DNA of 59,440 nt, from assembly GCA_902464175.1 (NCBI GenBank), contig CABQHZ010000001.1, positions 1 through 59,440 on the forward strand, in the 5' to 3' direction. The position numbers and the translations under genes are program-made. Below are positions 3,802 to 57,688 of the stretch, piece after piece. This stretch comes from an uncultured Collinsella sp. (GTDB lineage: Bacteria > Actinomycetota > Coriobacteriia > Coriobacteriales > Coriobacteriaceae). Below the pieces are notes generated by a model. The model searched no databases, had not been told where the DNA came from, and saw only the letters and a program-made list of their open reading frames with translations. Position 1 is the stretch's first letter; each line of letters opens with the position of its first letter.

Positions 3802-4197
3802 TTAAAGGACGAGCTGATGGTAGTCGGCGGGAGTTATGCGGCCTTCGGTGGCGGCACGGAATGCGGCGAGCGCATCGCCCGAGAACGGCATGGCCCAGCA
3901 CAGCCCGCAGCCGGCGGTAATGGAGCCGGGCAATGGCATAATGCGTCCGGGCACGCCGGCATCCAGGCACAGCTGCTCGCATTCCATCACATCGAACGTG
4001 CTGTCGAACGATACGATGATCTTGCGTTCGTGGTCGAGGACATCACCGGACGGGCCTTCGCGGTGTGCCTCACGATACGCCGCGGCGGTCGCTTCCTCTT
4101 CCGCGGTATGCCCGCAGCCTCCGCAGCCGCAGGTACAGGGTTCGGACCCGTCGCAAGTGCAAGGTTCTCCCGTGTCGGGACAAATATCGTGAGACAT
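3802..4197 (-). CDS. DUF3343-family protein (putative Se/S carrier) with Cys-rich N-terminal extension
   Basis: C-terminal IVSFDSTFDVM...GRIMPLPGSITAGCGL matches the DUF3343 pattern. Start moved to ATG 4197 (SD GGGAG). Confidence 0.75.
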   Translation of the reverse strand: MSHDICPDTGEPCTCDGSEPCTCGCGGCGHTAEEEATAAAYREAHREGPSGDVLDHERKIIVSFDSTFDVMECEQLCLDAGVPGRIMPLPGSITAGCGLCWAMPFSGDALAAFRAATEGRITPADYHQLVL

Positions 4198-4212
4198 GGC
4201 AACTCCCATCGT

Positions 4213-10725: not shown

Positions 10726-10789
10726 CTCGATTACCCCTTTCATCAGCCAAACACAACAGGCCAAAAGCCCGGCAACGAGCCCCAGACCC

Positions 10790-10825
10790 AAAAAGCCTCC
10801 CGCACGGCAACGCCCCGCGGGAGGC
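10790..10825 (-). terminator. Rho-independent terminator ending the FHL operon
   Basis: Minus strand GCCTCCCGC...GCGGGAGGC-TTTTT downstream of focA. Confidence 0.75.
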
Positions 10826-41400: not shown

Positions 41401-42348
41401 GAACGCATTAACGCCGATTGATGTGATAGATGTGTTCCCTCCCAGACCGGTATCGGTCAGAGCGCTGCAGCCATTATAAGCGTTCTCAGGAATCGAACTG
41501 AGACCAACGACCTTGTCGAGACCCGTAGATCGCAGCCCGCTCCAGGCAAACGCGGCATCGCCCATAGAGCCGATGGTAGCAACGTCATTAATGTTCAGGC
41601 TCGTAAGCGATCCGCACCCAGAAAACGCCTCTGTTCCGATGCCCCCAATGGTCATGCCGGAAAAACTGATATCGGCGAGATTCGAGCAACCAGAAAAGGC
41701 GTGTAGTCCAATTGAAGAAATAGAGCTGTTCTCAAAACGTACCGAGCGCAGACTGGAGGAGTACTCACAAATATATCCGGGGACCCCATCCACTCCGTAA
41801 TCAACGATCAGGTTGGTCACCAATTTACCATCGACAGAGTTCTCATACGGGTCGTTTCCATCGATCTCTACCGTAACGTTTCCGCTTGCATCACACGGAT
41901 ACACATAGCCGTTCGGCATAAGCTTGGCATACTCATAGACCGTTGGGTCCTCATACACGAGGGAATCGACTTCGCTGTCATCGGACGAGGGTTCCGCCGT
42001 AGCAGCCAAGCTCTTTGCAGCATCGGAGTTGGTCGCGGAGCTCGAAAGGTCTTGGGCCAAGCTCGACGTGGAAGTGCTGGTATCCGAGCTGGACGATTCG
42101 TCCTGAGCGTTATTCGTTTGGTCGGAAGTTGTGGATGAGCTGCCCTCGCTCGAAGACGACGCGTTATCGACCGCATCGACATCAGCGTCAGAGCTCGAGT
42201 CGGTCTTTTGGGCCTCGCTCTCGACGGCGACCGCCCCGGCATCATCGGCATAGGCCGCGCGGGGCGCAAGGGGTATCGAGGTCACGACCATCGCAACCGA
42301 AAGATAGACAACCAAAAACCTATAGAGGGCAGCAGTGATCCTGTTCAT
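29491..42348 (-). CDS. Giant (4285 aa) sortase-anchored surface protein: BspA-type leucine-rich repeats, Ig-like, InlB-B-like repeats, MBG-like and Ig repeats, PD-rich linker, LADTG anchor
   Basis: N-terminal signal peptide (...APRAAYA). Two LRR modules with SIGxxAFxxCxxL repeats. Many GYxFxGW-type repeats. Three copies of a V(T)AxAVNG...QPQD...SYQW...GEYxCRITQ...TDAGTYR...NPxF module. C-terminal LADTGD + hydrophobic stretch + RRRR. Confidence 0.9.
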   Translation of the reverse strand: MNRITAALYRFLVVYLSVAMVVTSIPLAPRAAYADDAGAVAVESEAQKTDSSSDADVDAVDNASSSSEGSSSTTSDQTNNAQDESSSSDTSTSTSSLAQDLSSSATNSDAAKSLAATAEPSSDDSEVDSLVYEDPTVYEYAKLMPNGYVYPCDASGNVTVEIDGNDPYENSVDGKLVTNLIVDYGVDGVPGYICEYSSSLRSVRFENSSISSIGLHAFSGCSNLADISFSGMTIGGIGTEAFSGCGSLTSLNINDVATIGSMGDAAFAWSGLRSTGLDKVVGLSSIPENAYNGCSALTDTGLGGNTSITSIGVNAFKNCSRLATTGLENNTTIKTLREGCFSGTNMSGGLTLPLYSKIEELPSRAFYGSKLETVYLGCDHVVLINSTTFPKQNMTVMVPAKMVSQYASGRPKEVWESCNGSLPVPVGKVLQKIKISRDPDKMAYQQGDTISLEGMSVTFQYPHSTMDSDYEALIKDELGEYLTATPCDGDVFDESMDGEPIQLVYDDGYTRLVAYSKGNLQQAAYEYAKLMPNYYLYPCDANGNLTVEIDENSPRENSVDGRMVTNLIVDYGVDEVDAQLCADSTNLRSVRFENTSISKIGLHAFYNCPNLTDISLFGMTIGTIGKEAFYGCKSLASLNISETTTIGSMGYAAFAGSGLVSTGLDKVVGLTSIPDRAYEGCKALTDTGLDKNASITSIGVCAFRFCSNLATTGLESNTTVETLGHTCFYGTDLSGGLTLPYNSKIEELPEKAFGSTNLETVFFGCNHAVLINTDTFPKYNMTVMVPAKMIPKYSKGEPKAVWERCNGCLPVPVGKVLENVEISCDPNNMTYEPGDTISLEGMSVELDYPHSVSIWDYEALIKEELGEYLTATPCDGDVFDESMDGQPVKLVYDDGYSHFETQTKGTLQLKKPTPTSFQISYAQTIDKGERKLMDGVELPDVSGTMTIDAGAEVTLDAGALGMLNDNITFKGWYDTESGKYISKEAVCTFTPDKDLSLEARFKLKDYAVHANDAQATDSSQDFAHLSVTAQNCYRNAGETVELSAATDNALFLGWYLGEGDDAYAVSDQLDFTYTVDKADAIVSEDKTDARIEITPRYCAPQASVVLSVDGVDENGQPLGQFLSTGLYGIGSRVTVVAVPMPGYVFDYATDALGNVVFTGDDGPSYTFVLEGDVQYTAHFREATDPDESLAALKAALIAAITAAAVLATMYGLGEIVDPIAADAVIEIGMADNIEDVAAVGTKVLKEIKDIIDDHKKPKPHGDHKIEIIATAQPEVGGVVTGGGIHYEGTVATLEAVANPGYRFVCWKENGVEVSTSPLKTMTITDLTPEVVKMTAVFEKKVEITAVAEADGIQADFSTGCTASPVKQSITRGDQAMVTASEGPDYAFVGWFEDGLEVSPERTYIFKAEVDRHLVARFRKADKTILVNTDPFDSAEVLCDGVPVVDGKVRAKDGDILTFTMRPKVRPDNPEKTYRFVEWRETDAQGITIANKQEVCEYRVNGNARIEAVMDGRDAHTVRAEADPLEGGTVTLKRGETAGMVLEVPEGERVTAEATPSEGYIFDGWYLSNGGSDATSTLVSSDRSYTFEPITDCVVQAKFTRACKVDVVVEPAAAMAGKYMVHGEGYCMKGEPATLSIELTAEASKQFTFKGWYDAKTDLLLGTDPSYLEFYPEDVECTVRAVFEENTYTVTAKAKKTFVERGTVEIEGHPGASSVTCGYGDTVMLKAKANDGYRFDHWKDGSGKEYESAELVVKVTKSDTYTAIFTDSKPEVMVTADSWLGGTVTCNGTVVKPATDKFKLGETLHLTAKARPGYLFWGWYVNGRLKSLKHETTLVAKARGKTGHCVITAAFVPIDTVCVPLADPAEGGTVKASRILADRGAEVALKATPNPGYVFTGWYTADGTFESADAEFTCHQERSHVHVARFMAKSYEVDATAVVDSGTGSLVESSVVGWVEGTGTVEAGHAATLTAHALSGYAFEYWADASGAVVSRDTTYHVAPTSDTALQAVFSAKQYAVDVSCEESMGTVEGAGSYAAGQVATVRAVAAEDTAFVGWFQNGTCVSSKKTYRFTVREDTSLYAVFASGSYVVHTVASPAEGGAVNGFGGYEVGDRATLRAIANTGYSFAGWTDDKGETVSENADYTVKVTGDATYTAIFTPKSYQVVLSASDDGVGTLSGEGSYQFGDTVELNATPMGTKRFVGWYVLDAEGNKSLLSCDAHCWVKLDKDMVEGLEDDALELQAVFADPYEVTVTGEVVAKDKASNRGCRVTGSGCFAVGDQVELTAVAGMGYRFVGWSTDKEGTSIVETATTLDVTATQDITYYAQFESDGQVTITVTGSSIFRGTALLVDGIPAGSRSYDRGDMFMAIAIPWKKYHFSHWVDDAGVTVSYSAFYIGTAKENKQLTAVFYETGCDVQVATYPKDAGFSMVALGTGGSYHSAAIMFTVPHKGWKFKYWVDENGMPVGFTPVINRVVFGNRTFTAVYERASMTVTAVDSRQGGHVEGSSEDESLGYAVTNEVENGESTTLTAVPDAGYVFDGWYARNDDGSLGDEPLSMDAVWTFVPEDNMTVEARFAEAPKYKVTARAVNGSVDPETASVATDGKVTLSATPDEGCYLTRVTVAEEAGEDGSAGNAYDLDISDYQGGAYEVTLSGVSAPQQVTFEFAKAAAPEVLAQPQDASAYEGDPVELSVAAEAGRNVRVHAAVSSGSAADVKLSYQWYRVPADGGKAVPLKGETGETLSIAQLGSDSEGEYFCRITQSYLGTVTKTDTEHATVSIVPREALVFNGRVLPAATAHDEYRADIAGATGGKAPYAYNLDDVEVPEGMQLTLADDGSGALVLSGVPAATGVRRFKIRCTDDHGNKCDAHFALLVKAKEAPLAFEGQTFTYNATAQAPELLGVPEGCEDDVKLTYVGTGDTHYSSDQAPVDAGTYRVVATLDAQGYVGNASCDFTIEKAPVDISIETSDVTYDGARHGAVVAVAGLDASAYSVTYRGIDGTSYGPTALEPCDSGNYRVTVKVTDPNYQGKKSAEFSITKASQVITGTTSYSGVYGGDPIVFNNVAQTPVSFELVDSDDDASPVSIKGRCATVKAAGTARVVAHAKASRNYLAAEDVELSVSVAPAQLLVKVDDAERFEGQKNPEFTSSLVSRCDTSDVKVTYFCSANEKSPAGEYQIDAAVADPNFDVAVDPGTLTVKKKPEHYKVTAKAVNGSVDNALVSVVEGGDATLSATPDEGCYLERVTVVQAGSDATVDLDISDYKGGAYEVTLSDVTASQEVTFEFAKADAPRVVAQPQDVSVHEGDAVALSVAAEAGKNVADHAASSTGCAAEVELSYQWFRMANGKAVALDGETGETLSLADLDDEKAGEYYCRITQRYLGAEKQADSDCASVSVVAWDTLVFNGDLLPAASAHGTYIATIAGAAGGMAPYEYAWDETKLPDGLKLSRIPGGLTLSGIPSKTGVSAFDITCTDARGEATTARFALVVQAKHVILTFTDGDYTFNGAPQTPEVSGAPKVCKGDLRVWYFGTGSTQYSSTEAPTDAGTYRAVATLRSHGYIGAAACQFEIAPAKLKVKIDDAERFEGEANPAFTSSLESAVDTSGVKVEYSCDADEDSPAGEYQIGATVTDPNFDVEVVPGTLTVKKKQEPVNPNPVVPDPDNPDPDQPDPGPKPDPDNPDPDNPEPDNPDKPERFEVTAEAVNGSVDNASVTVDAGGDVTLSATPDEGCYLERVTVTEAGSDKAVDLDISDYEGGAYEVTLSGVTASQEVTFEFVKADAPKMIAQPQDASAHEGDAAVLSVAAEAGKGVLDHASSSTGSAADVELSYQWFHMVGGEAVALEGETGETLLIENLDDDCAGEYFCRVTQRYLGTEAQVESDRAVVSVVPRDALVFNGGLLPVARAHSTYRATISGAAGGEAPYEYTWDDAKLPDGFKLTRTAGGLTLSGTPSKAGVSTFDITCKDAQGKTVTAHFVLVVQTKRVELAFEGGNFVYSGDAQAPKVTGVPKACEGDLRVRYYGTGGTHYSSSEAPTDAGTYRAVATLRSNGYVGAASRKFKIAPTKLKVKVDDVERFEGEMNPAFTSSLKSSADTSRVKVEYSCVADESSPAGEYQIEATVTDPNFDVTVEPGTLTVKKKQEPVDPDPVVPDPDKPDGPDPDKPDPDKPEPDQPDPGKPEPDKPEPDQPDKPDPDNPDKPEPDNPSKPEPEKPGTPDSDQPDSKDPTKPGSSDNSAVDKAKASGTENSGKKESSKTSAQQLADTGDRAPLAVVVAAGAAVLVALGLELLRRRRSDA
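29740..29950 (-). repeat. Coding tandem ~15-nt repeats (PDKPD/PEPDK linker); a second tract lies at ~31295-31420
   Basis: Imperfect 5-codon repeats within the giant CDS. Confidence 0.8.
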
Positions 42349-42474: not shown

Positions 42475-43617
42475 CTAATCGCAGCTCAAATCGCGCAGAG
42501 CCTCAATCGCCATGTTGACTTCCTCGGCCGTGTTGAAGTAACCAAACGAGAACCGAACCACGCCCTGGCGCTCGGTTCCCAACGCACGGTGCATGAGCGG
42601 AGCGCAATGGGCGCCGGGGCGCGTCGCAATCCCCCACCCTTGCATGAGCGCGTCCGAGATCTCGGCAGAGTCGATATCACCCACGTTGAGCGACACGATC
42701 GCAGAGTGCGCCGGCTGGTCAAAGGCACCGTAGAGCTTAATCCCCGGAATCTCGCACACACCGGCAAGGAAGCGATCGGCGAGCGCACGCTCGTGGGCAG
42801 CAATCGCCTCGACCCCACCCTGGGCCTCGATAAAGTCGAGGCCGGCAGAAAGGCCCGCGATGCCGTGGCCGTTGAGCGTGCCCGCCTCAAGGCGCGTGGG
42901 CCACTCAAGCGGCTGCAGCGCATCGAAACTGTGCACGCCCGTGCCGCCCATGGCCCACGGCGCCACGTCAATGCCCTCCGCCACGGCCAGCCCGCCGGTG
43001 CCTTGGGGTCCCATGAGCCCCTTGTGGCCGGTAAAGCACACGACGTCGAGCCCCATGGCCTGCATATCGATATGCGCCGTGCCGGCAGACTGCGAGGCAT
43101 CGACAATTACCAGCGCGCCGGCCGCATGGGCCATGGCGGCCACACGTGCAACGTCGACCGCATTGCCGGTCACATTGGAGGCATGCGTCACCACCACGGC
43201 GCGCGTACCCGGCGTGACCAGCTGCTCGAGCTCGTCATAGTCGAGCACGCCGTTCGCGTCACAGCCCGCATGCTCAACGGTCACACCCTGCTCCACCGCC
43301 AGGCGGTTAAGCGGACGCAGCACGGAGTTGTGCTCGAGCACCGTCGTGACCACACGGTCGCCGGGGCGCACCACGCCATTGATGACGGTGTTGAGCGCCG
43401 CGGTGGAGTTGGGCGTAAAGCACACATGGTCCGCCCTCGGGCAACCTAAAAGGCGCGCGAGCTTGGCACGGCAACCGTGAATCGTACGAGCGGCATCGAG
43501 GGCACCCGACGTGGCGCCGCGCCCGGCATTGCCGAGCGAGCACATCGCCTGCGTCACGGCATCGATGACCGTCTGCGGCTTGTGCATGGTCGTCGCCGCG
43601 TTATCCAGGTAGATCAT
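42475..43617 (-). CDS. Class-V aminotransferase, cysteine desulfurase/selenocysteine lyase of the selenium-associated type
   Basis: YLDNAATT, EHNSV, HASNVTG, DASQSAG, FTGHKGLMGP (PLP Lys), EAGT, RPGAHCAP (catalytic Cys). Last gene of the selD-yedF-DUF3343 run. Confidence 0.88.
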   Translation of the reverse strand: MIYLDNAATTMHKPQTVIDAVTQAMCSLGNAGRGATSGALDAARTIHGCRAKLARLLGCPRADHVCFTPNSTAALNTVINGVVRPGDRVVTTVLEHNSVLRPLNRLAVEQGVTVEHAGCDANGVLDYDELEQLVTPGTRAVVVTHASNVTGNAVDVARVAAMAHAAGALVIVDASQSAGTAHIDMQAMGLDVVCFTGHKGLMGPQGTGGLAVAEGIDVAPWAMGGTGVHSFDALQPLEWPTRLEAGTLNGHGIAGLSAGLDFIEAQGGVEAIAAHERALADRFLAGVCEIPGIKLYGAFDQPAHSAIVSLNVGDIDSAEISDALMQGWGIATRPGAHCAPLMHRALGTERQGVVRFSFGYFNTAEEVNMAIEALRDLSCD

Positions 43618-43865
43618 CGCACGACCTCCCACATATCAATCACGGTATAGCCCTCGGTGGGAACGCCCGCCGCGGCGAGTTCGCCGCGCAGCAGCTCCTC
43701 ATCGGCAGGCAACGCCTTCCACGCCAGACCACAGCCGGCAGCGACCTCCCCGGGCACGGGAATCGTTCGCCCGGGAAGGCCGCGCTCGATGCACAGGGAC
43801 TCGCAGCCCATGGCGGCCGCCGTGGTGGGAAACGTGATGACAAGCGCCGGGCGCTTCTCCCTCAT
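43614..43865 (-). CDS. DUF3343-family protein (putative Se/S carrier)
   Basis: LVITFPTTAAAM...GRTIPVPGEVAAGCGLAW. SD GGAG; ATGA overlap with the next gene. Confidence 0.85.
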   Translation of the reverse strand: MREKRPALVITFPTTAAAMGCESLCIERGLPGRTIPVPGEVAAGCGLAWKALPADEELLRGELAAAGVPTEGYTVIDMWEVVR

Positions 43866-43884
43866 GGCAACTCCAACCAATACG

Positions 43885-44511
43885 CTACGGGCGCACGACG
43901 CGCACGGCCTGCTCCATCTTCTCCACGATCACGTACATGTTGGTGACCTCGCCCACCGCAAGCTGGTCTTTAATGCCATAGTGGTCGAGGCAGGTACCAC
44001 AGGTGAGAATCTCGACACCCTGCTCGGCCAGGCCCTTCAGGTCGTCGAGCACCGGCGAGCCCTCAACGGTGAGCTTGGCGCCGCCGTTGTAGAACAGCAT
44101 GGTCGCGGGCAGCTCCTCCTGCTGCGTCACGGCAAAGATAAACGCTTTCATGAGCTTGTGGCCCAGCTCGTCGTCGCCACGGCCCATGCAGTCGGTGTAG
44201 ACGGAAATGACGAGCCTGCCCTTGCCGGCGCTGGCATCACAGAAGGCAGCGCCATCCTGCTCGGGATCGGCCATGGCAATGGCGCCAGAGGTCGCCACGG
44301 TCACGTGCCACTCGGCGTCAGAAACCTTCTTGACCGAGGCCGTGCAGCCTTTCTCCTGCGCCATCTTGGAGATGTTCTTGACGGCGGTCTCGTTGTCGAC
44401 CGAGGTCACGACGGCGCCCTCGCCATCGAGCTGCTTCAGAGCTTTGAGCGTCTTGACGACGGGCAGCGGGCAGGCATCGCCCATGGCATTGACTTCAATC
44501 TTGGTAGACAT
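43885..44511 (-). CDS. yedF: Selenium metabolism protein YedF (TusA/SirA-like + DsrE-like domains)
   Basis: AMGDACPLPVV, VDNETAVKN, MGRGDDELG, FYNGG, ILTCGTCLDHY, GEVTNMY. Start ATG 44511. Confidence 0.88.
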   Translation of the reverse strand: MSTKIEVNAMGDACPLPVVKTLKALKQLDGEGAVVTSVDNETAVKNISKMAQEKGCTASVKKVSDAEWHVTVATSGAIAMADPEQDGAAFCDASAGKGRLVISVYTDCMGRGDDELGHKLMKAFIFAVTQQEELPATMLFYNGGAKLTVEGSPVLDDLKGLAEQGVEILTCGTCLDHYGIKDQLAVGEVTNMYVIVEKMEQAVRVVRP

Positions 44512-44572
44512 AGCAAATTCCTTTCGAAAGAGCCGTTCTAGAGAACGGCAAACAGTTACATAAACGTGCGGG

Positions 44573-45622
44573 CTAGCGAACAACGCGGACGGCAGGACCG
44601 CCCGGCTCCGCCTCGCACACGCGCCCGACAACGGCCGCGATGCGCCCCTCGGCATGCAAGCGACGCGCAAGCCCATCCACATCGGCAGCAGGCGCCGCGA
44701 TGAGCAAACCGCCCGAGGTCTGCGGATCGTACAGCGCATCCAACATGCCCGGCTCCAGGTCCTCGTCGGCAGTCACGCGCGGGCCAAAGAAGTCCTGGTT
44801 GCGGTAGGAGCCAGCGGGGATAATGCCCAGACGCGCCATGTCGAGCACCTGGTCAAAGAGAGGCACCGCCCCCGACGCAAGCTCAATCTGCACGCCCGAG
44901 CCCTCGGCCATCTCGCACGCATGCCCAATCAGGCCAAAGCCCGTAATGTCGGTGCAGCCGTGAAGTTCGAGCCCCTCGGCCAAACGGATCGGGGCCTCGT
45001 TGAGGGTACACATCGAGTCAAACATGGCTGCGGCCTCGTCCTGCTCGATGAGCTCGCCCTTAATGGCCGTGGTGATGATGCCCGAGCCGATCGCCTTGGT
45101 CAGCAGCAGAACATCGCCCACGCGTGCGCCGCTGTTGGCGAGCATGTGGTCGAGTGGCACAAAACCGCTCACGGACAGACCGTACTTGGGCTCGTCGTCG
45201 TTGATGGTGTGGCCGCCCGCGATGGAGCAACCCGCCTCGACGCACTTATCGGCGCCGCCCGCCAGAATCTGACCGGCAACCTCAACGCCCAGGCAACTGG
45301 GTATGCAAAGCAGGTTCATGGCATGGCTCGGCCGCCCGCCCATGGCGTAGATGTCCGACAGCGAGTTGGCCGCAGCAATCTGGCCAAACAGAAACGGGTC
45401 GTCGACCATCGGTGGGAAGAAGTCGATGGACTGCACGAGCCCCAGGTTCTCCCCTACGCGGAAGACGCTCGCATCGTCGGAGGTATCGAACCCCACGAGC
45501 AAGTTGTCGTTATGCACATTTGGCAAGTCGCCCAAGACCTGGGCGAGGGCTCCAGGAGCCAACTTAGCGGCTCAACCGCTCGCGGCAGTCATAGACGTGA
45601 GCTTAATCTGATCGTCAGCCAT
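44573..45622 (-). CDS. selD: Selenide, water dikinase (selenophosphate synthetase), selenocysteine-containing (U17; UGA at 45572-45574)
   Basis: From ATG 45622 (SD GAGGAGGT): MADDQIKLTSMTAASG-U-AAKLAPG (conserved U/CxxK). Also DDASV, DFFPP, AANSLSDIYAMGG, GGHT, TDITGFGL, DPQTSGGLL. Confidence 0.95.
45528..45560 (-). promoter_or_regulatory. Candidate SECIS of selD (two tandem hairpins)
   Basis: GGCTC-CTG-GAGCC at +12..+24 and TCGCCCA-GGTCT-TGGGCGA at +26..+44 after the UGA. Confidence 0.55.
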
Positions 45623-45692
45623 CGATACCTCCTCTCATCGGTCAATCATTTCCTCCCAGTATACGCATGAATGCAGGCCCACGGCCGATGCA

Positions 45693-46457
45693 TTAATCGA
45701 GCGCCTGTGCGCGAATCGCCGCGCCGATGGCACCGGCAAAGCGGGCCTGGGGCGAGGTGGTCACCGGCGACCCCAGCAGCTCGCCCAACCGCTCCACAAC
45801 GTAGGCGTTCTCGCACAGACCACCGGTCAGATAGTACGGGGCGCCCGCCGCCTGCCCGGCCATAGTGGCCACGCGCGACACGACACTCTCGATCACGCCA
45901 CGCGCAATGTTCTCGCGCGGCTCACCGCGACCGATCAGGCTGATAACCTCGCTTTCGGCAAACACCGTGCACATGCTGCTGATCTTGGTGGGTTCGCCGG
46001 AACGCGCCAGGTCGGCCATCTGCTGCTGGGAAATGCCTAGGCGGTCGGCCATGATCTCCAAAAAGCGCCCCGTGCCGGCAGCGCACTTGTCGTTCATGGC
46101 GAACTTGGCCACGCGGCCACTTTTAAGCTGAATGACCTTGGTATCCTGGCCGCCCACGTCAATCACCGTGCCGTGATCGCCAAACAGGCGCACGGCACCG
46201 GTGCCGTGGCAGGTGATCTCGGTCACGACCTTGTGCGCATAGGGCACGGCAACACGGCCGTAGCCAGTCGCGACCACGCGAACATCGTCGCCTGTCACGT
46301 CATAGCCGGCTGCAGCGAGCTCAACGCGGAGGCGCTCGGCCGCATCGACCGAGGAGAACCCGGTTGGCTGCACGCACATCCACGCCACCGAACCCTCCCC
46401 GTCGACCACAGCAGCCTTAGCCGCCGTAGACCCGATATCGATCCCGATCCCTATCAT
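45693..46457 (-). CDS. ATP-dependent [4Fe-4S] activase (HgdC/YjiL/DCCP-R family, ASKHA ATPase)
   Basis: GIDIGST, ATGYGR, TEITCHG, IDVGGQDTK, MNDKCAAGTGRFLE, ISSMCTVFAESEVIS. Confidence 0.93.
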   Translation of the reverse strand: MIGIGIDIGSTAAKAAVVDGEGSVAWMCVQPTGFSSVDAAERLRVELAAAGYDVTGDDVRVVATGYGRVAVPYAHKVVTEITCHGTGAVRLFGDHGTVIDVGGQDTKVIQLKSGRVAKFAMNDKCAAGTGRFLEIMADRLGISQQQMADLARSGEPTKISSMCTVFAESEVISLIGRGEPRENIARGVIESVVSRVATMAGQAAGAPYYLTGGLCENAYVVERLGELLGSPVTTSPQARFAGAIGAAIRAQALD

Positions 46458-46512
46458 GGCTCTCTCCCAATCAGCAAGAAAATCAAACGATCAGACACTG
46501 CTGCAACAACGG

Positions 46513-46624
46513 CCCTCTGGCGTCTGAGGTGCCCGAGATTCCGAGCGACAAGCCCGACGAAGCGTACTCAAGGTACGCGAGGAGGGTTGGAGCCGGAAGG
46601 TCGGTTGCCTCAGACGTCAGAGGG
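46513..46624 (+). repeat. Structured palindromic repeat element, copy 1 (REP/MITE-like)
   Basis: 17-bp terminal IR (CCCTCTGGCGTCTGAGG / CCTCAGACGTCAGAGGG) with inner stems. Homologous to 53226-53328. Confidence 0.6.
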
Positions 46625-47780
46625 TTTCGATAAAGGCGGCGATGCGCGTCTCGATCTGGCCCATGTCGCCATTGCTGTAGTCGGTCTCGATCTTCATATA
46701 CGGAATACCCGCACCCTCGACAGCCTCCTGCATGCGCGCACTCTCCACGTTAAAGGTGTGGCAGGCCTGCAGCACGCTCTCCACCACGCCATCGACGTGG
46801 TACTTCTCGCACATGGCCAGCGTGTTCTCCATGCGGCCGTCATTGGGCGTCATGACCGAGCAGTTGATATCCAGGTAGCGGTCGGCGATGGCGCGCAGGA
46901 TGTCGGGAGTCTCCGGATCGATCATCATGGCCGCCGTGCGCTCACCCGAGCAGTCGTCCATGCACACGACCACGCCGCCGTTGGACTCGATGGTGCGACC
47001 GATCTTGTTGATCACGCCGCCCACCGGGCAACCGGTGATCAGAATGCGCTTGGCATCCGCCGCAACCGGGCGCTCGCCCGCGTCGTAGGCCTCTCGCAGC
47101 TTGGCAACCTTTTGCTCCAGCTGCTGCGTATAGGCCTCGATATCAAAGCTGAACGTACCGGCAAACATGGTGCTCATCAGGTCGACGCCGCTCATGGCCG
47201 CCGGCTGGTTAGCCTGCAGCGCAAACATCTCAAGCTGGGCCGCACGCAGGCGATTGCGACGACGGACAGCGGCGCGCAGGTCGTCATCGGTGATCGTAAT
47301 ACCGTAGAAGTTCTCGAGCTCCTCCTTGAGCAGGCGGCACTCCTCGTACCAGCCCTCACGCTCATAGGCACGATCGCGGCTCTGCGGAAGATGCAGAATG
47401 TGCGTGCGCTTGAGTTCGTTGAGCAGTTCGTACATCTTCTTCTTGCCGTCGCAGGTGGTCTCGCCGATGATCATGTCGCTAAAGTACGTAAACGGGCACT
47501 TTTGCGAGTAGGCAAAGCCATACGTCGACTTGATGAGCGGGCAGAGGTTTGCCGGCAGCACCTTCTCGGCCTCGGGAATCACCTCATCGGACGTACCGCA
47601 CAGAGCGACACTTGCGGCCCCCGCGGCATCGATAATCTCGAGCGGCGTATAGCTGCACAAGAAGCCGACCAGGCGATTACCCGCCTGCTTATAATCCTTC
47701 ACGCGAATAAACGCCGCCTTGCGCTGCTCGTTGAACTCCTCAAACGTGCGCGGCAACGGCTGCCCCTCGATATCGGCCAT
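46617..47780 (-). CDS. Double-cubane [8Fe-9S] cluster anaerobic reductase, paralog B (YjiM-like; 2-hydroxyacyl-CoA dehydratase fold)
   Basis: Eight conserved Cys: [45 protein letters not shown]-terminal ETDY...TRIAAF. Start ATG 47780. Confidence 0.85.
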
Positions 47781-47857
47781 AGTAGATCCCCTCTCTTGTA
47801 CCGATGTACCTTCCATTAAACAACGAACCCCCGCAATACCAAAAAGGAATCGCTCCT

Positions 47858-48643
47858 TTAGGGAATCGCGTCGATAAGCGCCTGTGTATACGGATCGCTC
47901 GGATGCGCGATCACGTCCTCGGCAGCGCCCTCCTCAACAAGGCGGCCGTGATAGAGCACGCCGATCCGGTCGGACATATGCCGCACCACACGCATATCGT
48001 GCGAGATAAACAGCAAGGCCACGCCCGTTGTGCGTTGCAGCTCCCGAAGCAAGTTGAGCACCTGGGCTTGCACAGACACGTCGAGCGCCGAGACCGGCTC
48101 ATCGCACACCACGAGGCGCGGCTCGCAAATGAGCGCGCGTGCCAGATTAAGTCGCTGGCGCTGTCCGCCCGAAAGATCGTGCGGATAGCGGTCGTAGTGC
48201 TCGGGCAGCAAACCCACCGACGCCAGAGCCGAAAGCGCACGCTCGTGGCGCTCGTCCGCATCGCGCACGCCGGCGATAATCAGCGACTCCTCCAAAATGC
48301 GACCGACACGGTTGCGTGGGTCAAACGCGGTGGAGCTGTCCTGAAACACGAGTTGGATCTCACGGCGATATGGTTTGCGCTCGCGCTCCGACATAGCAGC
48401 CAAGTCATGGCCGCGATAGATAATCGAACCGGAATCCGCGTGCTCAAGCCCACAGATCAGACGCCCGGTCGTCGACTTGCCCGATCCAGATTCGCCGACC
48501 AAGCCATAGACCTCGCCCGGCGCAATCTCAAACGAAAGGTCGTCCACAGCGGTAAACACCTGGCGCTTAAAGCCCGAACCCGACATGGGATAGGTTTTGG
48601 TCAGGTGCGAGACCTTAAGCAGGGCTTCGCTATTTGCAGCCAT
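47858..48643 (-). CDS. Peptide/nickel ABC transporter ATP-binding subunit (OppF/DppF-like)
   Basis: [32 protein letters not shown]. Start ATG 48643. Confidence 0.92.
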
Positions 48644-49628
48644 GGCACTCCCCCTCCTCGACAAGCCAACACTTCGATCGGTCGCACGCGCTCGCGGCAA
48701 AGAGCGGCGGCTCCTGCGCGCGACAACGCTCCTCGGCGCGCGCGCAACGAGGCGCAAAGCGGCAGCCGCAGGGTATTGCCGTGAGCGGCGGCACCGTACC
48801 CGGAATATTCGCCAGCGTATCGACCCGCTCACCCTCAAGCGGCGGGATGCTCGCGATGAGCCCCTGGGCATACGGGTGGCTCGGACGCTCCATAAGGCCG
48901 CAGGCATCGATCTCTTCTACGATCTGGCCCAAGTACATGACGTGCACGCGCGAGCAAATGCTCGTGACAACGCCCAGGTCATGGCTGATAAACAGCACCG
49001 CCATGTTCTCGGTGCGGTTGAGGTCGCGCAGCAAATCCAAAATCTGCTTTTGCGTCGTCGTGTCGAGCGCCGTGGTGGGCTCATCGGCAATGAGCAGCCG
49101 CGGATGGCCGGCAAGCGCCATGGCTATCATCACGCGCTGGCGCATACCGCCGCTAAAATCGCTCGGATACATATCAAAGCGAGCACCGGCGTCGCGGATC
49201 CCCACGCGCTCCAAAAGCGACAGGGCCTCGGCGCGGGCGTCGCGACGGCTCACCTTGCGATGGGCGCGCACCGCCTCGACCACCTGCGCCCCCACCGTCA
49301 TGACGGGATTGAGCGAGCTCAAGGGGTCCTGGAATATCATGGCGATATCGCAGCCGCGCACCTCGCGCATGGTTTTGAGCGGACGCGCCAGCAGGTCCTC
49401 GCCATCAAACACAATCTGGCCCTCGTAGGCCATCTTCTGCTCATGCTCCAGCAGGCGCATGACACTTTGTGCAAAGACCGACTTACCGCAGCCGGACTCG
49501 CCGACGACGCCCACGATCTCGCCGGCATCGATATGCAAATTGAGCTTGTTAACCGCCTCGAGCGCGCGCCCATCGCGTCCCACAAACGAAATGCAGAGGC
49601 CGCGCACGTCCAAAAGATGCTGAGCCAT
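48630..49628 (-). CDS. Peptide/nickel ABC transporter ATP-binding subunit (OppD/DppD-like)
   Basis: GESGCGKS, FSGGMRQR, DEPTTALD, C-terminal GCRFAPRC...C...C. Confidence 0.93.
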   Translation of the reverse strand: MAQHLLDVRGLCISFVGRDGRALEAVNKLNLHIDAGEIVGVVGESGCGKSVFAQSVMRLLEHEQKMAYEGQIVFDGEDLLARPLKTMREVRGCDIAMIFQDPLSSLNPVMTVGAQVVEAVRAHRKVSRRDARAEALSLLERVGIRDAGARFDMYPSDFSGGMRQRVMIAMALAGHPRLLIADEPTTALDTTTQKQILDLLRDLNRTENMAVLFISHDLGVVTSICSRVHVMYLGQIVEEIDACGLMERPSHPYAQGLIASIPPLEGERVDTLANIPGTVPPLTAIPCGCRFAPRCARAEERCRAQEPPLFAASACDRSKCWLVEEGECHGCK

Positions 49629-49631
49629 GGG

Positions 49632-50459
49632 CTAGTCCTCCTTTGTCTTGGGATCGAGGGCGTCACGCAGGCCATCGCCGGCCAGGTTGAGCGAAAGCAC
49701 GCTTGCGATAATGGCCGCCGCCGGGAAGAAGATCATCCACCAGGCCTTGCGAATCACATTTTTGCCTGCCTGTAGGATGTTGCCCCAGCTGGCATCGGGC
49801 GCCTTGATGCCCAATCCCAAAAAGGAGAGCGCCGCTTCGGAAAGCACGGCCTCGGCAAAGATAAAGGTGGCCTGCACCAAAAACGGAGCCATCACGTTGG
49901 GCACGATATGCAGCCACACGATACGAGCGGTCGATGCACCCTGCACGCGCAGGGCCTCCACGAAGGGCTCCTCCTTAACCACCATGGCGCGTGAACGAAC
50001 GATGCGCGCCATGCTGGGCGTGTATACGATCGTGAGCGCGATGATGACGTTCCACACGCTCGCTCCCATCATCGCCATCAACGCGATGGCCAGCAGCACG
50101 CCCGGAATGGACATCAGGCCGTCGCAGATACGCATGAGCACGTGATCGAGCTTCTCGTTGTAGCACGCGTAGGCACCGATAACCAGACCGAGCGCACTCG
50201 TCGCAAGTGTGACGGCCACGCCGACGCCAAGCGACACGCGCGCGCCGGCAATTACGCGTGCAAGCAAATCACGGCCAAAATCATCGCAGCCAAAGGGGTG
50301 CGCAGGCGAAGGTGCAGACAGTCGCAGCGCCATCTCCTGCGTATTGGGGTCGACCGTCCACACCAAAGGGCCGACGAGCGCGACAAGCATGATGGCCAAA
50401 AAGATGCAGCCGCCGACTACAAACCCCTTATTGGCAAGGGCCTTCTTAAAGCTTGTCAT
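49632..50459 (-). CDS. Peptide/nickel ABC transporter permease (OppC/DppC-like)
   Basis: HPFGCDDFGRD, FVEALRVQGAS, EAALSFLGLG, GDGLRDALDP. Confidence 0.93.
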   Translation of the reverse strand: MTSFKKALANKGFVVGGCIFLAIMLVALVGPLVWTVDPNTQEMALRLSAPSPAHPFGCDDFGRDLLARVIAGARVSLGVGVAVTLATSALGLVIGAYACYNEKLDHVLMRICDGLMSIPGVLLAIALMAMMGASVWNVIIALTIVYTPSMARIVRSRAMVVKEEPFVEALRVQGASTARIVWLHIVPNVMAPFLVQATFIFAEAVLSEAALSFLGLGIKAPDASWGNILQAGKNVIRKAWWMIFFPAAAIIASVLSLNLAGDGLRDALDPKTKED

Positions 50460-51412
50460 TACGCATCGCCCCATTTTCGGACACGCGGGTCAAACGCGCC
50501 GTAAGCCAAATCGACCAATAGGTTAATCACCGAGTTCAGCAGGGCGATGACCAGCAGCACGCCTTGGATAACGGGATAGTCGCGCCGCTCGATGGAGCTC
50601 GTGACCAGCTGGCCCAGACCGGGGATGTTAAAGATAGCCTCGGTCACCACCGCACCCGTAATCAGGGCGCCAAAGGAATAGCCGACCGAGGTGAGGATCG
50701 GCAACGCGGCGTTGCGCAGGGCATGGGACAGCACTACACGCACCTCGGAGACGCCCTTGGCGCGCGCCGTCTTGACGCAGTCGAGCTGCATGGCCTCGAT
50801 CACGCTCGCGCGCGTCATGCGCATGAGCAGCGCGGCCTGCACGCATCCCAGCGATATGGCCGGCAGTGCCAGATAGCGCAGGTGCACAAACCAGCCTTTC
50901 GAGAGCGGCACATAGCCGGCCACCGGAAGCACACGCAGCGTGACGGCGAACAGCCACATAAGCATCAGCGCCATCAAAAAGCCAGGTATTGCCACGCCCA
51001 AAAGTGCTACGACGCGCAAGACCGCATCGGTACGCGACCCGTGCTTAAGGGCGGCAATGACGCCGCAGGGCAGCGCGATAAGCAGTGCGATAAGCTGTGC
51101 CAGAATCGCCAGCGACAGCGTAGGTCCAAAATGCTCGGCAATCGCCTGCGTGACAGGCTGATGCATAAAATACGAATCGCCCAGATCCCCGGTCAGCACA
51201 CCGCCCATCCACTCAAGGTAGCGTTGCGGCAGCGGCTCGTTAAGCCCCAGGCTTTCATTGACGCGCTCGATCTGGTCGGCCGAGGCCTCCATGCCGAGCA
51301 TCGAAGAAGCGGGGTCGCCCGGCGTAAGATAGATAATCAAAAACACGACGACCGAGATGATGAGCATCACCGGGATCATCGCGCCGATACGTTTGAGCGT
51401 GTACTTTAACAT
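50459..51412 (-). CDS. Peptide/nickel ABC transporter permease (OppB/DppB-like)
   Basis: PGDPA, GDLGDS, TARAKG, HALRNA, EAIFNIPGLG, RDYPVIQG. Confidence 0.93.
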   Translation of the reverse strand: MLKYTLKRIGAMIPVMLIISVVVFLIIYLTPGDPASSMLGMEASADQIERVNESLGLNEPLPQRYLEWMGGVLTGDLGDSYFMHQPVTQAIAEHFGPTLSLAILAQLIALLIALPCGVIAALKHGSRTDAVLRVVALLGVAIPGFLMALMLMWLFAVTLRVLPVAGYVPLSKGWFVHLRYLALPAISLGCVQAALLMRMTRASVIEAMQLDCVKTARAKGVSEVRVVLSHALRNAALPILTSVGYSFGALITGAVVTEAIFNIPGLGQLVTSSIERRDYPVIQGVLLVIALLNSVINLLVDLAYGAFDPRVRKWGDA

Positions 51413-51449
51413 GCGAGGTTTCTATATCCCCTCTGAACGCGGACAGACC

Positions 51450-51485
51450 GCGGCGGCCGAGGGGTCAAGCCCCTACGGTCGCCGC
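51450..51485 (-). terminator. GC-rich intergenic hairpin after the substrate-binding protein gene (terminator or mRNA stabiliser)
   Basis: GCGGCGGCCG-AGGGG-TCAAG-CCCCT-A-CGGTCGCCGC; no clear U-tract. Confidence 0.5.
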
Positions 51486-51499
51486 TCCATCGATACCTA

Positions 51500-53113
51500 T
51501 TACTCCGGGCGCTTGGCATTCCAAACGATGGCGCCGTCGAGCAGCTCAAAGCCCTCGACATCGGCCTGCGTGCCGGTGATGGCCACGTAATGGCACAGTG
51601 GCTCGATTACCGCGATCTCGTACAGGCGCTCCTGGCACTCGGCCCACTTCTTGGTTGCGGCCTTCTGGTCCTCGGCCGTACGGGTCTCGGCAACCAGCGA
51701 AAGTGCCTTCTCGTCCGAAAGGCCGTAGAAGCCTTTAGAGACGGAGAGCGACTGCGCCGGAATCGGCTTGTAGTTCGTCGATGCCACAAACAGATCCCAC
51801 TGGTCCGGCTTGCTGGAGCGAATATCCATAAAGGTCGCGAACTCATAGCTCTCGACCTCGGCGGTAAAGCCGGCCTTCTCGAGCTGCTCCTGCAGCGCAA
51901 CGGTGGCGTTGTACATATCCTTGTAGTCGGGCGTGGTGAGCAGCCTCACCGTCTCGCCGGCATAGGAGGTCTTGGCGAGTGCCTTCTTGGCCGCCTTGGG
52001 GTCGGCCTCGTTAAAGTATTTTTTGCCGGCATCGGTCGCCCACTGGTCGTTTTCGGGGTTGCCCAGGTTGGGATCGATCGTAAAGAGCTCTTCCTCGCCA
52101 TAGGCAGCCAGAGCGGCAGCCTTGCAGTCGATCGCCATAAAAGCGCACTTGCGGATAGCCTCGTCGGCAAAAATGCCTTCGTTCATGTTAAAGAACGCGG
52201 TGAGGACACCCGCGGTATGCGTGTACAGCTTCACGTCATCATTGCCATCGAAGTCATGGAAATTCTCGGTGGGAATCTCGCCGGCGATATCGTATTCGCC
52301 GGTCTCGAAACCGCTCACGCGCGTGGAGCCCTCCGTGACAAACTGATAGAAAATATCCTTCGTAGGTGCGGAGACCTTGCCGGTGTAGCCCGACGCCTTG
52401 CCCTCAGCAGCCTGATAATCGTCGTTACGTGTCAGATGAATGTACTGATCCTGCTTCCACTCCACAAGCTTATAGGCACCGGTACCGATATAGTCGGCGA
52501 TGCCCGTGTCGCCCGCGGCGTCGATAACCTCGGAGGGAACGATCGCGGGATATTGGGAGTGGTTGCCCAGAATCGTGAGGAAATCCGTAGCGGGCGCGGT
52601 GAGTGTGCAGGTCACCTCGTGGTCGCCGGACTTGGCAAACTGGGCACCGGGGAGCAGGCTCGCCGCGCGATCGTTGACCGTAAGCCAGCGGTTCATCGAG
52701 GCCACGACGTCATCGGGGCCAAACTCCTTGCCGTTGTGGAACGTAATGCCCTCGCGCAGCTCGATGGTATAGGCCAAGCCGTCGTCAGAGACCTTGTAGC
52801 TCTTGGCCAGGACGGGCTGGGGCTCATACTTGGAATCCAGGCCAAAAAGCGGCTCCATGATATTGCAGGCGATATCAACGGTCACGAGCGAGGAGGTGGT
52901 GTGGGGGTCGAGGCCATCGGGGCTGGCAGGCAGAGCAACCTGAAGCTCATCACGATAATCCACATCGCCCGAAGCCGAGCCGGCAGCGCTGCCGGAATCG
53001 CTGTTAGAGCCGCCGCAGCCCGCTAGGCCAAGACCGGCCAGCACAGAAAGCGTGCCAAAACCGGTTACAAAGCTGCGACGAGACATGCCCGCCTGGGTAA
53101 AGACGTTGTTCAT
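51500..53113 (-). CDS. Family 5 ABC substrate-binding lipoprotein with Tat-type signal
   Basis: MNNVFTQAGMSRRSFV...GLAGC lipobox; LDPH, LAKSYKVSDDG, LREGITFHNG, IGTGAYK. Start ATG 53113. Confidence 0.92.
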   Translation of the reverse strand: MNNVFTQAGMSRRSFVTGFGTLSVLAGLGLAGCGGSNSDSGSAAGSASGDVDYRDELQVALPASPDGLDPHTTSSLVTVDIACNIMEPLFGLDSKYEPQPVLAKSYKVSDDGLAYTIELREGITFHNGKEFGPDDVVASMNRWLTVNDRAASLLPGAQFAKSGDHEVTCTLTAPATDFLTILGNHSQYPAIVPSEVIDAAGDTGIADYIGTGAYKLVEWKQDQYIHLTRNDDYQAAEGKASGYTGKVSAPTKDIFYQFVTEGSTRVSGFETGEYDIAGEIPTENFHDFDGNDDVKLYTHTAGVLTAFFNMNEGIFADEAIRKCAFMAIDCKAAALAAYGEEELFTIDPNLGNPENDQWATDAGKKYFNEADPKAAKKALAKTSYAGETVRLLTTPDYKDMYNATVALQEQLEKAGFTAEVESYEFATFMDIRSSKPDQWDLFVASTNYKPIPAQSLSVSKGFYGLSDEKALSLVAETRTAEDQKAATKKWAECQERLYEIAVIEPLCHYVAITGTQADVEGFELLDGAIVWNAKRPE

Positions 53114-53225
53114 AAAAATCCTCTCATCATTGAACAACCGGACAGATATATGCAAAGCCAGGCAACACCTTGCGGTGCATCGGGGTGCCACCGGCAAAAG
53201 CAACGAATGGGCAAATATCATCCCC

Positions 53226-53328
53226 ACGGCTTCCCCAGGCACCCGATCTTGCCGTTCAAACCGTCGCTCGCGCACAAAGTACGCGGCGCTTCTCTTTCAC
53301 GGCAACCTCGGGCACCTTGGAAACCCGT
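53226..53328 (-). repeat. Structured palindromic repeat element, copy 2 (REP/MITE-like)
   Basis: Minus strand ACGGGTTTCCAAGGTGCCCGAGGTTGCCGT...GCGTAC-TTT-GTGCGCGAG...ACGGCAAGATCGGGTGCCTGGGGAAGCCGT; shares AGGTGCCCGAG, GCGTAC..GTRCGCGAG and TCGGKTGCCT with 46513-46624. Confidence 0.6.
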
Positions 53329-53347
53329 TTACCTTATTGGACTAGAC

Positions 53348-54631
53348 CTAAATGGTCTCCAGGAAAGCTTCGATCCTAGTTTGGAGTTGGCCTGCGTCCT
53401 CGCCGGCGTAGTCGGTCGTGATGTGCATAAAGGGAATACCGGCCTCTTCGGCGGCCTTCTCCACGGCGAAGGACTCCATCTCGTAGAGCGTGCAGAACTG
53501 CAGGGCCACGTCGACGATGCCGTCGGCATGCAGGTCGCGCGCCATCTGGACGATGTCCTTCATACGCTGGTCGTTGGGAGTAAAGACGGCGCAGTTGATC
53601 TTAAAGTAGCGCTCGGCGATGGCGTCGAGCATCTCGTCGACCGTCTCGCCGGACTCGTCGACCAGGTCCTTGTAGTAGCGCGAGCCCGTGCAGGACTCCT
53701 CGCCCACCACGATGCCGCCAGCCTTCTCGATCAGGTTGAACAGCTTCCAGTTGGGCACGGCCATGGGCGTGCCGGTGTACAGGATGCGCTTGGTGCCCTT
53801 GGGTGCCACGCCCTCACCATTGGCGGCGCGCTCCTCGCACTCGGCAGCCATGTCGTTGATGGCGCCGGTCAGGCGCGGCGTGTCGTCCATAAAGGCAGCC
53901 TGCACGGTCAGCAGGCTATCGAGGCCGCTGATGGGCGCCGGGTCGGCAGCACGGGTCGCAGCCAGACGCTGCAGGGCGCGGCGCTTCTCGTTAACGGCGT
54001 GGATGGCAGCCTTCAGGCGCTCGGGCGTGATCTTGACGCCGCACTCTTCCTCGATCTTGGCAGCGAGCTTTTTGACCTCGGCCTTCCAGGTCACGAGCGT
54101 CGACTCGTCGTGCACGTTGGGGATATCCATGACGTACATGTTCTTTTGCGTGGCAAAGAACTCATAGGCCTTCTTCTTGCCGTCGCAAGTGTTCTCGCCG
54201 ACTACCAGGTCGCTCGACTCGATGTAGGGGCAGACCTCGCCCAGCTTAAAGCCAGCAAAGCTCTTGATGAGCGGACAGGTGTTTCGCGGCAGATGCTCCT
54301 CGACCTTATCCGTTGCCCAATCGGCGCCAGAGCACAGGCCCACGGGAATGCCGTCGCAGGCAAGCACGATCTCCTCGGGCACGTAGACGCAGAACGAGCC
54401 GACGATCTTGGTGGCCTCGCCGGCCTCCTTCTTGTCGAGCATCTCCTTAATACGGCCGCTATGAATGTTGGTGGCAACAAAATCCAGGTAGGAAGTGGAC
54501 TTGGGGCGATTGTTCTGCGTCAAGAACATATCCCCGTACATCTGGCCCACGGCACCCAGCAGCATGTCGTGGTCGGCAAGATTCATGCCGAGGCTCTCCC
54601 ACATCGGATGGAAATCAAATTCTTCAGCCAT
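53348..54631 (-). CDS. Double-cubane [8Fe-9S] cluster anaerobic reductase, paralog A (DCCP-type long N-terminus)
   Basis: Eight conserved Cys: FCVYVP, LCSG, TCPLIKS, VCPY, NTCDGKKK, ESCTG, INCAVF, QFCTLY. N-terminal MWESLGMNL...RP...LDFV; C-terminal TDY...TRIEAF. Confidence 0.87.
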   Translation of the reverse strand: MAEEFDFHPMWESLGMNLADHDMLLGAVGQMYGDMFLTQNNRPKSTSYLDFVATNIHSGRIKEMLDKKEAGEATKIVGSFCVYVPEEIVLACDGIPVGLCSGADWATDKVEEHLPRNTCPLIKSFAGFKLGEVCPYIESSDLVVGENTCDGKKKAYEFFATQKNMYVMDIPNVHDESTLVTWKAEVKKLAAKIEEECGVKITPERLKAAIHAVNEKRRALQRLAATRAADPAPISGLDSLLTVQAAFMDDTPRLTGAINDMAAECEERAANGEGVAPKGTKRILYTGTPMAVPNWKLFNLIEKAGGIVVGEESCTGSRYYKDLVDESGETVDEMLDAIAERYFKINCAVFTPNDQRMKDIVQMARDLHADGIVDVALQFCTLYEMESFAVEKAAEEAGIPFMHITTDYAGEDAGQLQTRIEAFLETI

Positions 54632-57636: not shown

Positions 57637-57688
57637 GGGCGACTCCTCAAACAAAGGGTAACGACGCGCAGGCGCGCCGCTTCAATCT

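Follow-up and report, generated by a model that had tools for sequence, protein, structure and literature searches.

Double-cubane cluster proteins (DCCPs) and their activases carry out ATP-driven low-potential reductions in vitro, and the natural substrate of these reductases is an open question. Their association with selenium has been described before: 955 of 970 high-scoring DCCPs lie in genomes encoding selenophosphate synthetase (SelD), and Haft & Gwadz (10.1101/2022.07.06.499078) proposed a role in processing selenium compounds, raised a selenium-bridged cluster as a formal possibility and noted that DCCPs often adjoin an ATP-binding cassette (ABC) importer, including the SAO importer. 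PMC10418091 likewise depicts DCCP among putative selenium genes, and in Slackia heliotrinireducens the STRING partners of YedF, YedE, DUF3343 and the selenium-type LysR include an activase, a glycosyltransferase and two subunits of dehydratase type (Lin 2015, PMC5322559). The DCCP–SelD link is thus already published (Haft & Gwadz; Lin 2015) and not new here. We analyzed a 59,440-nucleotide stretch of an uncultured Collinsella sp. (GCA_902464175.1, contig CABQHZ010000001.1, positions 1 to 59,440; hereafter the window), which carries a new variant of this selenium gene neighbourhood: two DCCP genes with a family-5 ABC importer between them, ahead of selD. The locus narrows the experiment by which the substrate question could be approached.

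The locus (42475..54631) holds 12 genes, all on the minus strand and separated by gaps of -14 to 234 nt, in the order DCCP-A, substrate-binding protein, two permeases, two ATPases, DCCP-B, activase, selD, yedF, DUF3343 and class-V lyase. Gene calls and family matches confirmed all 12 genes of this co-directional run, whose order had been given in a preliminary description made from the sequence alone. The arrangement resembles the Slackia heliotrinireducens cluster, in which YedF, DUF3343, a selenocysteine (Sec) lyase and SelD are linked with two 2-hydroxyglutaryl-CoA dehydratase subunits, a glycosyltransferase and an activase; it differs in its importer, the STRING partners in PMC5322559 being given without one of family 5. 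Across relatives the string resolves into three layers, a constant selD core, an optional DCCP–activase module and a swappable family-5 slot, which we tentatively read as a front end for scavenging selenium or sulfur (probability roughly 40%). We infer an importer cargo, a DCCP reaction on a selenium compound and a carrier relay: the importer would take up an S- or Se-substituted amino acid or a small thiol peptide, which the DCCPs, driven by ATP, would likely cleave or reduce to a selenol or to selenide; from there the lyase and carriers would hand the selenium to SelD.

The two double-cubane reductases and the HgdC-type activase of the preliminary description all passed their family cut-offs. 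DCCP-A (53348..54631, 427 aa), a class I long protein with an N-terminal extension, scored 490 bits on NF040772 (cut-off 350), and DCCP-B (46617..47780, 387 aa), a class II short, YjiM-like protein without the extension and 39% identical to DCCP-A, scored 499 bits. DCCP-A aligns end to end with the Carboxydothermus hydrogenoformans DCCP (6ENO/7YYL; E 5e-127) with its cysteines (81, 100, 119, 149, 314, 347 and 380) aligned, and every motif cysteine of DCCP-A and DCCP-B pairs with a 6ENO cysteine. The seven-cysteine spacings, 18/18/29/164/32/32 in DCCP-A and 18/18/29/166/29/32 in DCCP-B, agree with the published motif to within a few residues. The gene directly after DCCP-B encodes an ASKHA-type activase of the DCCP-R/HgdC family (45693..46457; PF01869; TIGR00241, 229 bits against a cut-off of 125), with C125 and C163 as its two candidate cluster cysteines. 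An [8Fe-9S] cluster and ATP-dependent reduction are predicted for the window's DCCPs. An identity as 2-hydroxyacyl-CoA dehydratase or benzoyl-CoA reductase was rejected at 67–105 bits, against cut-offs of 421–700 for HadC, BzdN and BcrC.

The C. hydrogenoformans DCCP/DCCP-R system thus shares family, aligned cluster cysteines and a paired ASKHA activase with the window, and DCCP-A also shares its class I N-terminal extension; the characterised cluster is described as sulfide-bridged and active in vitro (PMC7317905, PMC9351452). Unlike that system, the window combines class I and class II paralogues with one activase, ahead of selD. Class I DCCPs are described as having narrow channels that admit small molecules, and class II (YjiM-like) proteins as having predicted room for larger substrates (PMC7317905). 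With this predicted open channel, DCCP-B is more likely than DCCP-A to act on an imported organic substrate; it also stays in loci that have lost DCCP-A alone. The idea of an obligate DCCP-A/B heterodimer was rejected, DCCP-A being absent from several otherwise intact loci. The comparison with methylthio-alkane reductase (MarHDK) drawn in the preliminary description stands only as an analogy and implies no kinship: what the two have in common is the notion of scavenging by reductive C–S cleavage powered by ATP, whereas MarHDK pairs a nitrogenase fold with a MinD-type ATPase and DCCPs pair a dehydratase fold with an ASKHA activase.

Records of the close relatives are titled Collinsella, and comparisons were split between same-genus genomes and non-Collinsella Coriobacteriia. 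DCCPs were present in 248 of the 401 genomes of a class-wide draw. Of 80 DCCP-positive non-Collinsella Coriobacteriia, a count that excludes four others on account of size, 79 have selD, as do five of five further genomes checked separately; among DCCP-negative genomes the figure is 15 of 34. The genome profile therefore supports the link between DCCPs and selenium that the preliminary description had drawn from adjacency. We examined 13 of the 15 selD loci of DCCP-negative genomes; ten of these belong to close relatives where selD(Sec)–yedF–DUF3343–lyase comes next after modC, the DCCPs and activase having been cleanly deleted. Activase fragments of two kinds persist in four of the ten, which points to repeated deletion of the DCCP–activase module. 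All loci examined retain the selD core, those of the ten relatives included, so the Sec trait can do without the module. DCCPs depend on a SelD genome; the Sec trait is independent of DCCPs. Fisher tests made in this comparison treat kin as independent and overstate significance.

This one-way dependence, which matches the published 955 of 970, is suggestive of scavenging, yet it is just as compatible with an enzyme that consumes selenium as with an optional supply route. DCCPs could accordingly act downstream of SelD as selenium consumers, for example through a Se-bridged double cubane or through selenium-dependent maturation by way of YedF/DUF3343, with the importer supplying a DCCP-B substrate in which selenium is optional. 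A client enzyme would show just such a dependence, DCCP-B always follows the importer, and the Se-bridged cluster has been raised as a formal possibility by Haft & Gwadz (10.1101/2022.07.06.499078). We nevertheless consider a consumer role improbable, as the characterised cluster is described as sulfide-bridged and active in vitro, and the CtaP-like importers and C–S lyases found beside DCCPs (below) point to supply, not use.

The surroundings of DCCP genes were also mapped in 31 non-Collinsella genomes, picked from the best matches listed and including some loci cut by contig ends. YedF/TusA, DUF3343 or the lyase lay nearby in 16 of these, selD lay within the examined stretch in six, an SAO operon in five and a family-5 importer in two. 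The SAO-type operons flanked by DCCPs (L190, L199, L206, L263 and L264) belong to five genomes of other coriobacterial families and include an ArsP permease, an NMT1-type binding protein and a MerB-like lyase. A third importer type, with a DUF3798 binding protein, two ATPases and a BPD_transp_2 permease, stands between two DCCP genes in G232 (L204:2472-10690), with a TusA-like gene nearby. Four genomes (L186, L190, L197 and L206) have a ferredoxin-thioredoxin-reductase-beta-like gene immediately after that for the activase.

The window's importer comprises a family-5 substrate-binding protein (51500..53113, 537 aa; PF00496, SBP_bac_5), two BPD_transp_1 permeases of OppB/NikB type (permease B, 50459..51412) and OppC/NikC type (permease C, 49632..50459), and two ATPases with ABC_tran and oligo_HPY domains, of OppD type (ATPase D, 48630..49628) and of OppF type with a short C-terminus (ATPase F, 47858..48643). 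In most relatives DCCP-A directly adjoins DCCP-B. Of 150 same-genus genomes, 14 have the window-type binding protein, and its place is this slot in every case; in a class draw of 301 genomes, with at most four candidates scored per genome, it occurs in 12 of 97 in-genus genomes and 0 of 204 outside the genus. Counts of importer loci rest on the best 80 of 362 matches, all Collinsella-like. Within these, the binding protein lies directly behind DCCP-A or modC in all 80 loci, nine of which reach modC without DCCP-A. DCCP-B (≥60% identity) lies downstream of the importer in each of the 70 loci having it, and is lacking in none of the 60 importer loci that reach selD. This fixed position and the constant company of DCCP-B suggest a shared role in scavenging. 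Orthologue identity averages 85.5% for the binding protein and ~95% for the permeases.

The importer is nevertheless optional and not a fixed part of the pathway, so that its proposed place in selenium metabolism survives in part: the slot also hosts a CtaP-like importer (below), and the window-type importer itself is confined to a minority of the genus. A rather unlikely alternative is that the DCCPs are selenium-linked and the importer a Bacillota-derived passenger for an unrelated amino-acid derivative, inserted once in a recombining slot and shuffled among strains. Its restricted distribution (14/150 in the genus, 0/204 outside) fits this, as do its nearest non-coriobacterial relatives, which are Bacillota whose 15 loci lack selenium genes. 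On flanking-gene trees its presence is scattered (12, 14 and 21 changes versus shuffle means of ~17.5–17.8), as homologous recombination predicts, so the constant position may trace to one insertion and is weak evidence alone. A mere passenger sits less well with the unrelated CtaP-like importer that took the same slot, with kin importers and C–S lyases flanking DCCPs in two other families, and with the SAO importers in five of the 31 genomes above; importers recur beside DCCPs. In the literature, with subscription journals mostly outside coverage, we found no description of a family-5 importer inside a DCCP/selD locus.

A glycosyltransferase often accompanies the importer. Of the 60 importer loci that span both activase and selD (among the best 80 of 362), 57 have it between these two genes, and it is present in 34 of 150 genus relatives, comprising 13 of 14 importer-positive and 21 of 136 other genomes; it was not found in the window's own genome. 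No match to the SenB model TIGR04348 was obtained at E 1e-15, and SenB was not among 14 PDB matches. A selenosugar reading of importer and glycosyltransferase was rejected in view of the physical linkage of the genes, the lack of resemblance to SenB and the failure to find the glycosyltransferase in this genome. The enzyme, of GT4 type, lies directly upstream of selD (L034:14147-15358), and G037, G299 and G499 have it next to DCCPs; in database entries it is fused to the activase, possibly through miscalls, and its weak PDB matches include MshA and BshA.

Evidence linking the slot to sulfur or selenium includes a second importer. In 4 of 300 relatives (G056, G596, G163 and G617) we found another family-5 binding protein, which has 27% identity to that of the window; it lies directly behind DCCP-A in the first three, and the G617 contig ends before DCCP-A. 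In the two complete loci (G056 and G596) the binding protein and two permeases stand between DCCP-A and DCCP-B, and ATPase genes are missing. The nearest PDB entries to this protein are Clostridioides difficile AppA (E 6e-82) and Listeria Lmo0135/CtaP (5ISU, E 8e-79), the next following at E 7e-38; we found no paper in the literature comparing C. difficile AppA with CtaP. Listeria Ctp is described as a three-gene, ATPase-less, high-affinity importer of glutathione and cysteine (10.1101/2023.10.16.562582, PMC10269559). The G056/G596 cassette has the features of CtaP-CtpP1-CtpP2, a binding protein near CtaP with two permeases and likewise no ATPases, and by this resemblance suggests glutathione or cysteine uptake. 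Two different importers thus occupy one slot, and the CtaP-like alternative is new here.

CtaP/AppA-like importers of the same clade (support 0.995) also flank DCCPs in G027 and G530, genomes of two other families. The G530 order is activase, DCCP, PatB-type C–S lyase, importer; that of G027 is family-3 importer, PatB C–S lyase, activase, DCCP, DUF3343, lyase, importer, M20 peptidase. The PatB-type lyase scored 398 bits in G027, above the cut-off of 340, and 337 bits in G530, just under it. The second importer filling the slot and the PatB-type lyases beside DCCPs elsewhere suggest that the slot favours S/Se cargo. They also name candidate ligands: cysteine or selenocysteine peptides, glutathione analogues and S/Se-alkyl cysteines.

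The window's own binding protein is harder to place. Its N-terminus reads as twin-arginine and lipobox-like, and it scored under every named NCBIfam cut-off. The AlphaFold model (pLDDT 89.7) gave as best fold match the uncharacterised 8VDX (Z 39.3, rmsd 2.6, 481 aligned residues, ~21% identity), and in two fold searches many family-5 proteins matched equally at ~20% identity. An ESM Atlas search returned generic SBP_bac_5 clusters only, and a viral-contig scan with the binding-protein alignment gave no match. Throughout the family a T-x-D-Y-x-[ED]-M stretch is invariant and the G-W-x-x-D-type segment of paralogues is lacking. We take these two stretches to be the peptide-terminus binding regions of DppA/OppA structures, so a non-peptide ligand is likely. 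The SAO system has nine sao genes, among them Sec-bearing importer subunits. No SAO family match was obtained among the 12 genes, and searches of the 86%-complete genome with SaoE and SaoX of relatives gave no match; the SAO importer of Haft & Gwadz is described as SaoABPX, and the window's differs as a family-5 (Opp/Nik-type) importer with no in-frame TGA.

Nickel is an unlikely cargo. An importer of nickel or another metal chelate could serve the formate hydrogenlyase island of the window, with its Hyf hydrogenase and Mo/Sec formate dehydrogenase, and would stand beside a molybdate importer: modABC lies directly upstream of DCCP-A, a hydrogenase-4 operon is in the window, and Nik/Opp models give good scores, albeit below their cut-offs, for the permeases and ATPases. 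We regard this as very improbable because the binding protein falls far short of NikA (82–103 bits on NikA models with cut-offs of 393–600; 73–103 bits across NikA/CntA models with cut-offs of 393–800) and a separate gene of the CbiM/NikM family lies elsewhere in the genome. In the fold search, NikA and NikZ structures ranked no higher than binders of peptides, glutathione or opines, and the importer is missing from most relatives.

The wider clade of the window's binding protein (support 1.0; more distant members 31–33% identity) has modified amino acids as its common neighbour theme, with sulfur in one context of three. A Niallia member is flanked by an NtaA/DmoA monooxygenase, an M20 amidohydrolase and a TauE sulfite exporter, which suggests cargo of the kind a scavenging front end would import. 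A Microvirga member has desuccinylase-like and CapA-like neighbours, and three alphaproteobacterial members accompany a DgaE-like ammonia-lyase and RidA (two also a deacetylase), a context that points to non-sulfur cargo.

That last context is one of several points that weigh against a scavenging role. We know of no biochemical link between any DCCP and selenium, and the ten relatives lacking DCCPs and activase keep selD(Sec)–yedF–DUF3343–lyase. A family-5 importer adjoined DCCPs in only 2 of the 31 non-Collinsella genomes mapped. The window's binding protein is not itself CtaP-like: it is 22–27% identical to CtaP-like proteins, matches 5ISU at E 2e-22, falls in a separate clade and, unlike Listeria CtaP, comes with its own ATPases. 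Its PDB matches (26 bits or E 1e-26 at best) spread across many ligand types. Its nearest relatives outside the coriobacteria are Bacillota proteins (40–48% identity). In 15 metagenome loci of such relatives (~40% identical; roughly six contexts) the orthologous five-gene cassette was present, and DCCP, activase, selD, yedF and lyase were found in none within at most 10 kb on each side; the 50 other open reading frames scanned from these loci included no selenium genes. G027 holds 19 family-5 matches, which makes the importer–DCCP adjacency there less surprising, and in G255 the CtaP-like importer and PatB lie on a contig other than that of the DCCPs.

SelD produces selenophosphate, here for the Sec of formate dehydrogenase FdhF and of SelD itself, and EF2568-type lyases are able to release selenide from Sec. 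The window's selD (44573..45622; TIGR00476, 341 bits against 125) is open from its ATG at 45622 only if the TGA at 45572-45574 (codon 17, SG-U-AAK) is read as Sec; this in-frame TGA is at the catalytic site, and tRNA-Sec, selA, selB and the gene for Sec-containing FdhF all lie inside the same window. YedF (43885..44511; TIGR03527, 213 bits against 110) carries TusA and DsrE domains with CPLP and CGTC motifs, and DUF3343 (43614..43865; PF11823, Se_S_carrier) is a putative Se/S carrier. YedE was not found in the window's 86%-complete genome. The last gene encodes a class-V PLP-dependent cysteine desulfurase or Sec-lyase-like enzyme of the EF2568 family (42475..43617; TIGR01977, 414 bits against 377) with the group II motif RPGAHCA. 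It falls under the cut-off of the SclA model (NF040779, 354 against 525 bits). Enterococcus faecalis SclA is described as sharing the EF2568 family, the group II RXGXHCA motif and a selD operon (10.1101/2020.02.07.939272). The window lyase differs in an Asn after the conserved His, which by the motif, with no direct alignment, would correspond to SclA His100; the SclA H100N variant is reported as still Sec-lyase active (10.1101/2020.02.07.939272). A motif scan of the genome for further UGA-containing genes, itself insensitive, gave two unconvincing matches, and Rfam found three tRNAs and no riboswitch in the window.

More specifically, DCCPs may be the missing reductive step of anaerobic organoselenium scavenging, a proposal we hold to be doubtful: interchangeable importers would bring in seleno-amino acids, selenoglutathione-type peptides or selenoethers, DCCP-B would cleave or reduce them with electrons driven by ATP, and YedF/DUF3343 would transfer the selenium to SelD. 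If true, DCCPs would gain a first natural function, and a dedicated route of selenium uptake would be known in bacteria for the first time; according to a 2026 review (PMC13188914), a specific transport system with high affinity for selenium is yet to be identified in prokaryotes. The Collinsella strains would then be a ready natural knock-out series, one culturable gut genus offering variants with no DCCP, DCCP-B only, both DCCPs or either importer, with and without the glycosyltransferase. The value of the locus lies in this strain series and the short ligand list, which make the DCCP question testable.

Co-transcription of the 12-gene string would be in keeping with its layout. A promoter and terminator scan gave site counts not above those of shuffles and no terminator-like sites in the intergenic gaps. 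Four RNA runs from relatives (~5% shared words) represent strains without the importer, with contigs reaching 23–42 kb. Two short repeats occupy both intergenic gaps around the DCCP genes and vary among strains in orientation or presence: a dispersed, REP-like repeat at 53221..53335, with 11 matches in the genome and inverted in relatives without the importer, and a second at 46506..46615. They may be recombination points.

Elsewhere in the window, positions 3700-27300 hold a complete formate hydrogenlyase-2-type island with Sec-containing FdhF (TGA near 25245), the hyf genes of the hydrogenase-4 operon, focA, selA, selB, tRNA-Sec and mobA, as well as a PhsA-like molybdoenzyme (8608-10791) and a second DUF3343 (3802-4209). 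Xanthine-dehydrogenase-like molybdoenzyme genes at 2-1920 (minus strand), cut by the contig end, best match the selenium-dependent XDH model, under its cut-off. ModB (56155-57654, minus strand) has an extra N-terminal ~230 aa with no Pfam match, and occurs in the genus as two sequence types (about 68% and 90–96% identical). After the lyase, where many relatives have brnQ, the window encodes a 4285-aa surface protein (29491-42348, minus strand) with BspA-type leucine-rich repeats, InlB B-repeats, MBG and Ig domains and a C-terminal sortase-type signal; a homologue stands at the same place in G019.

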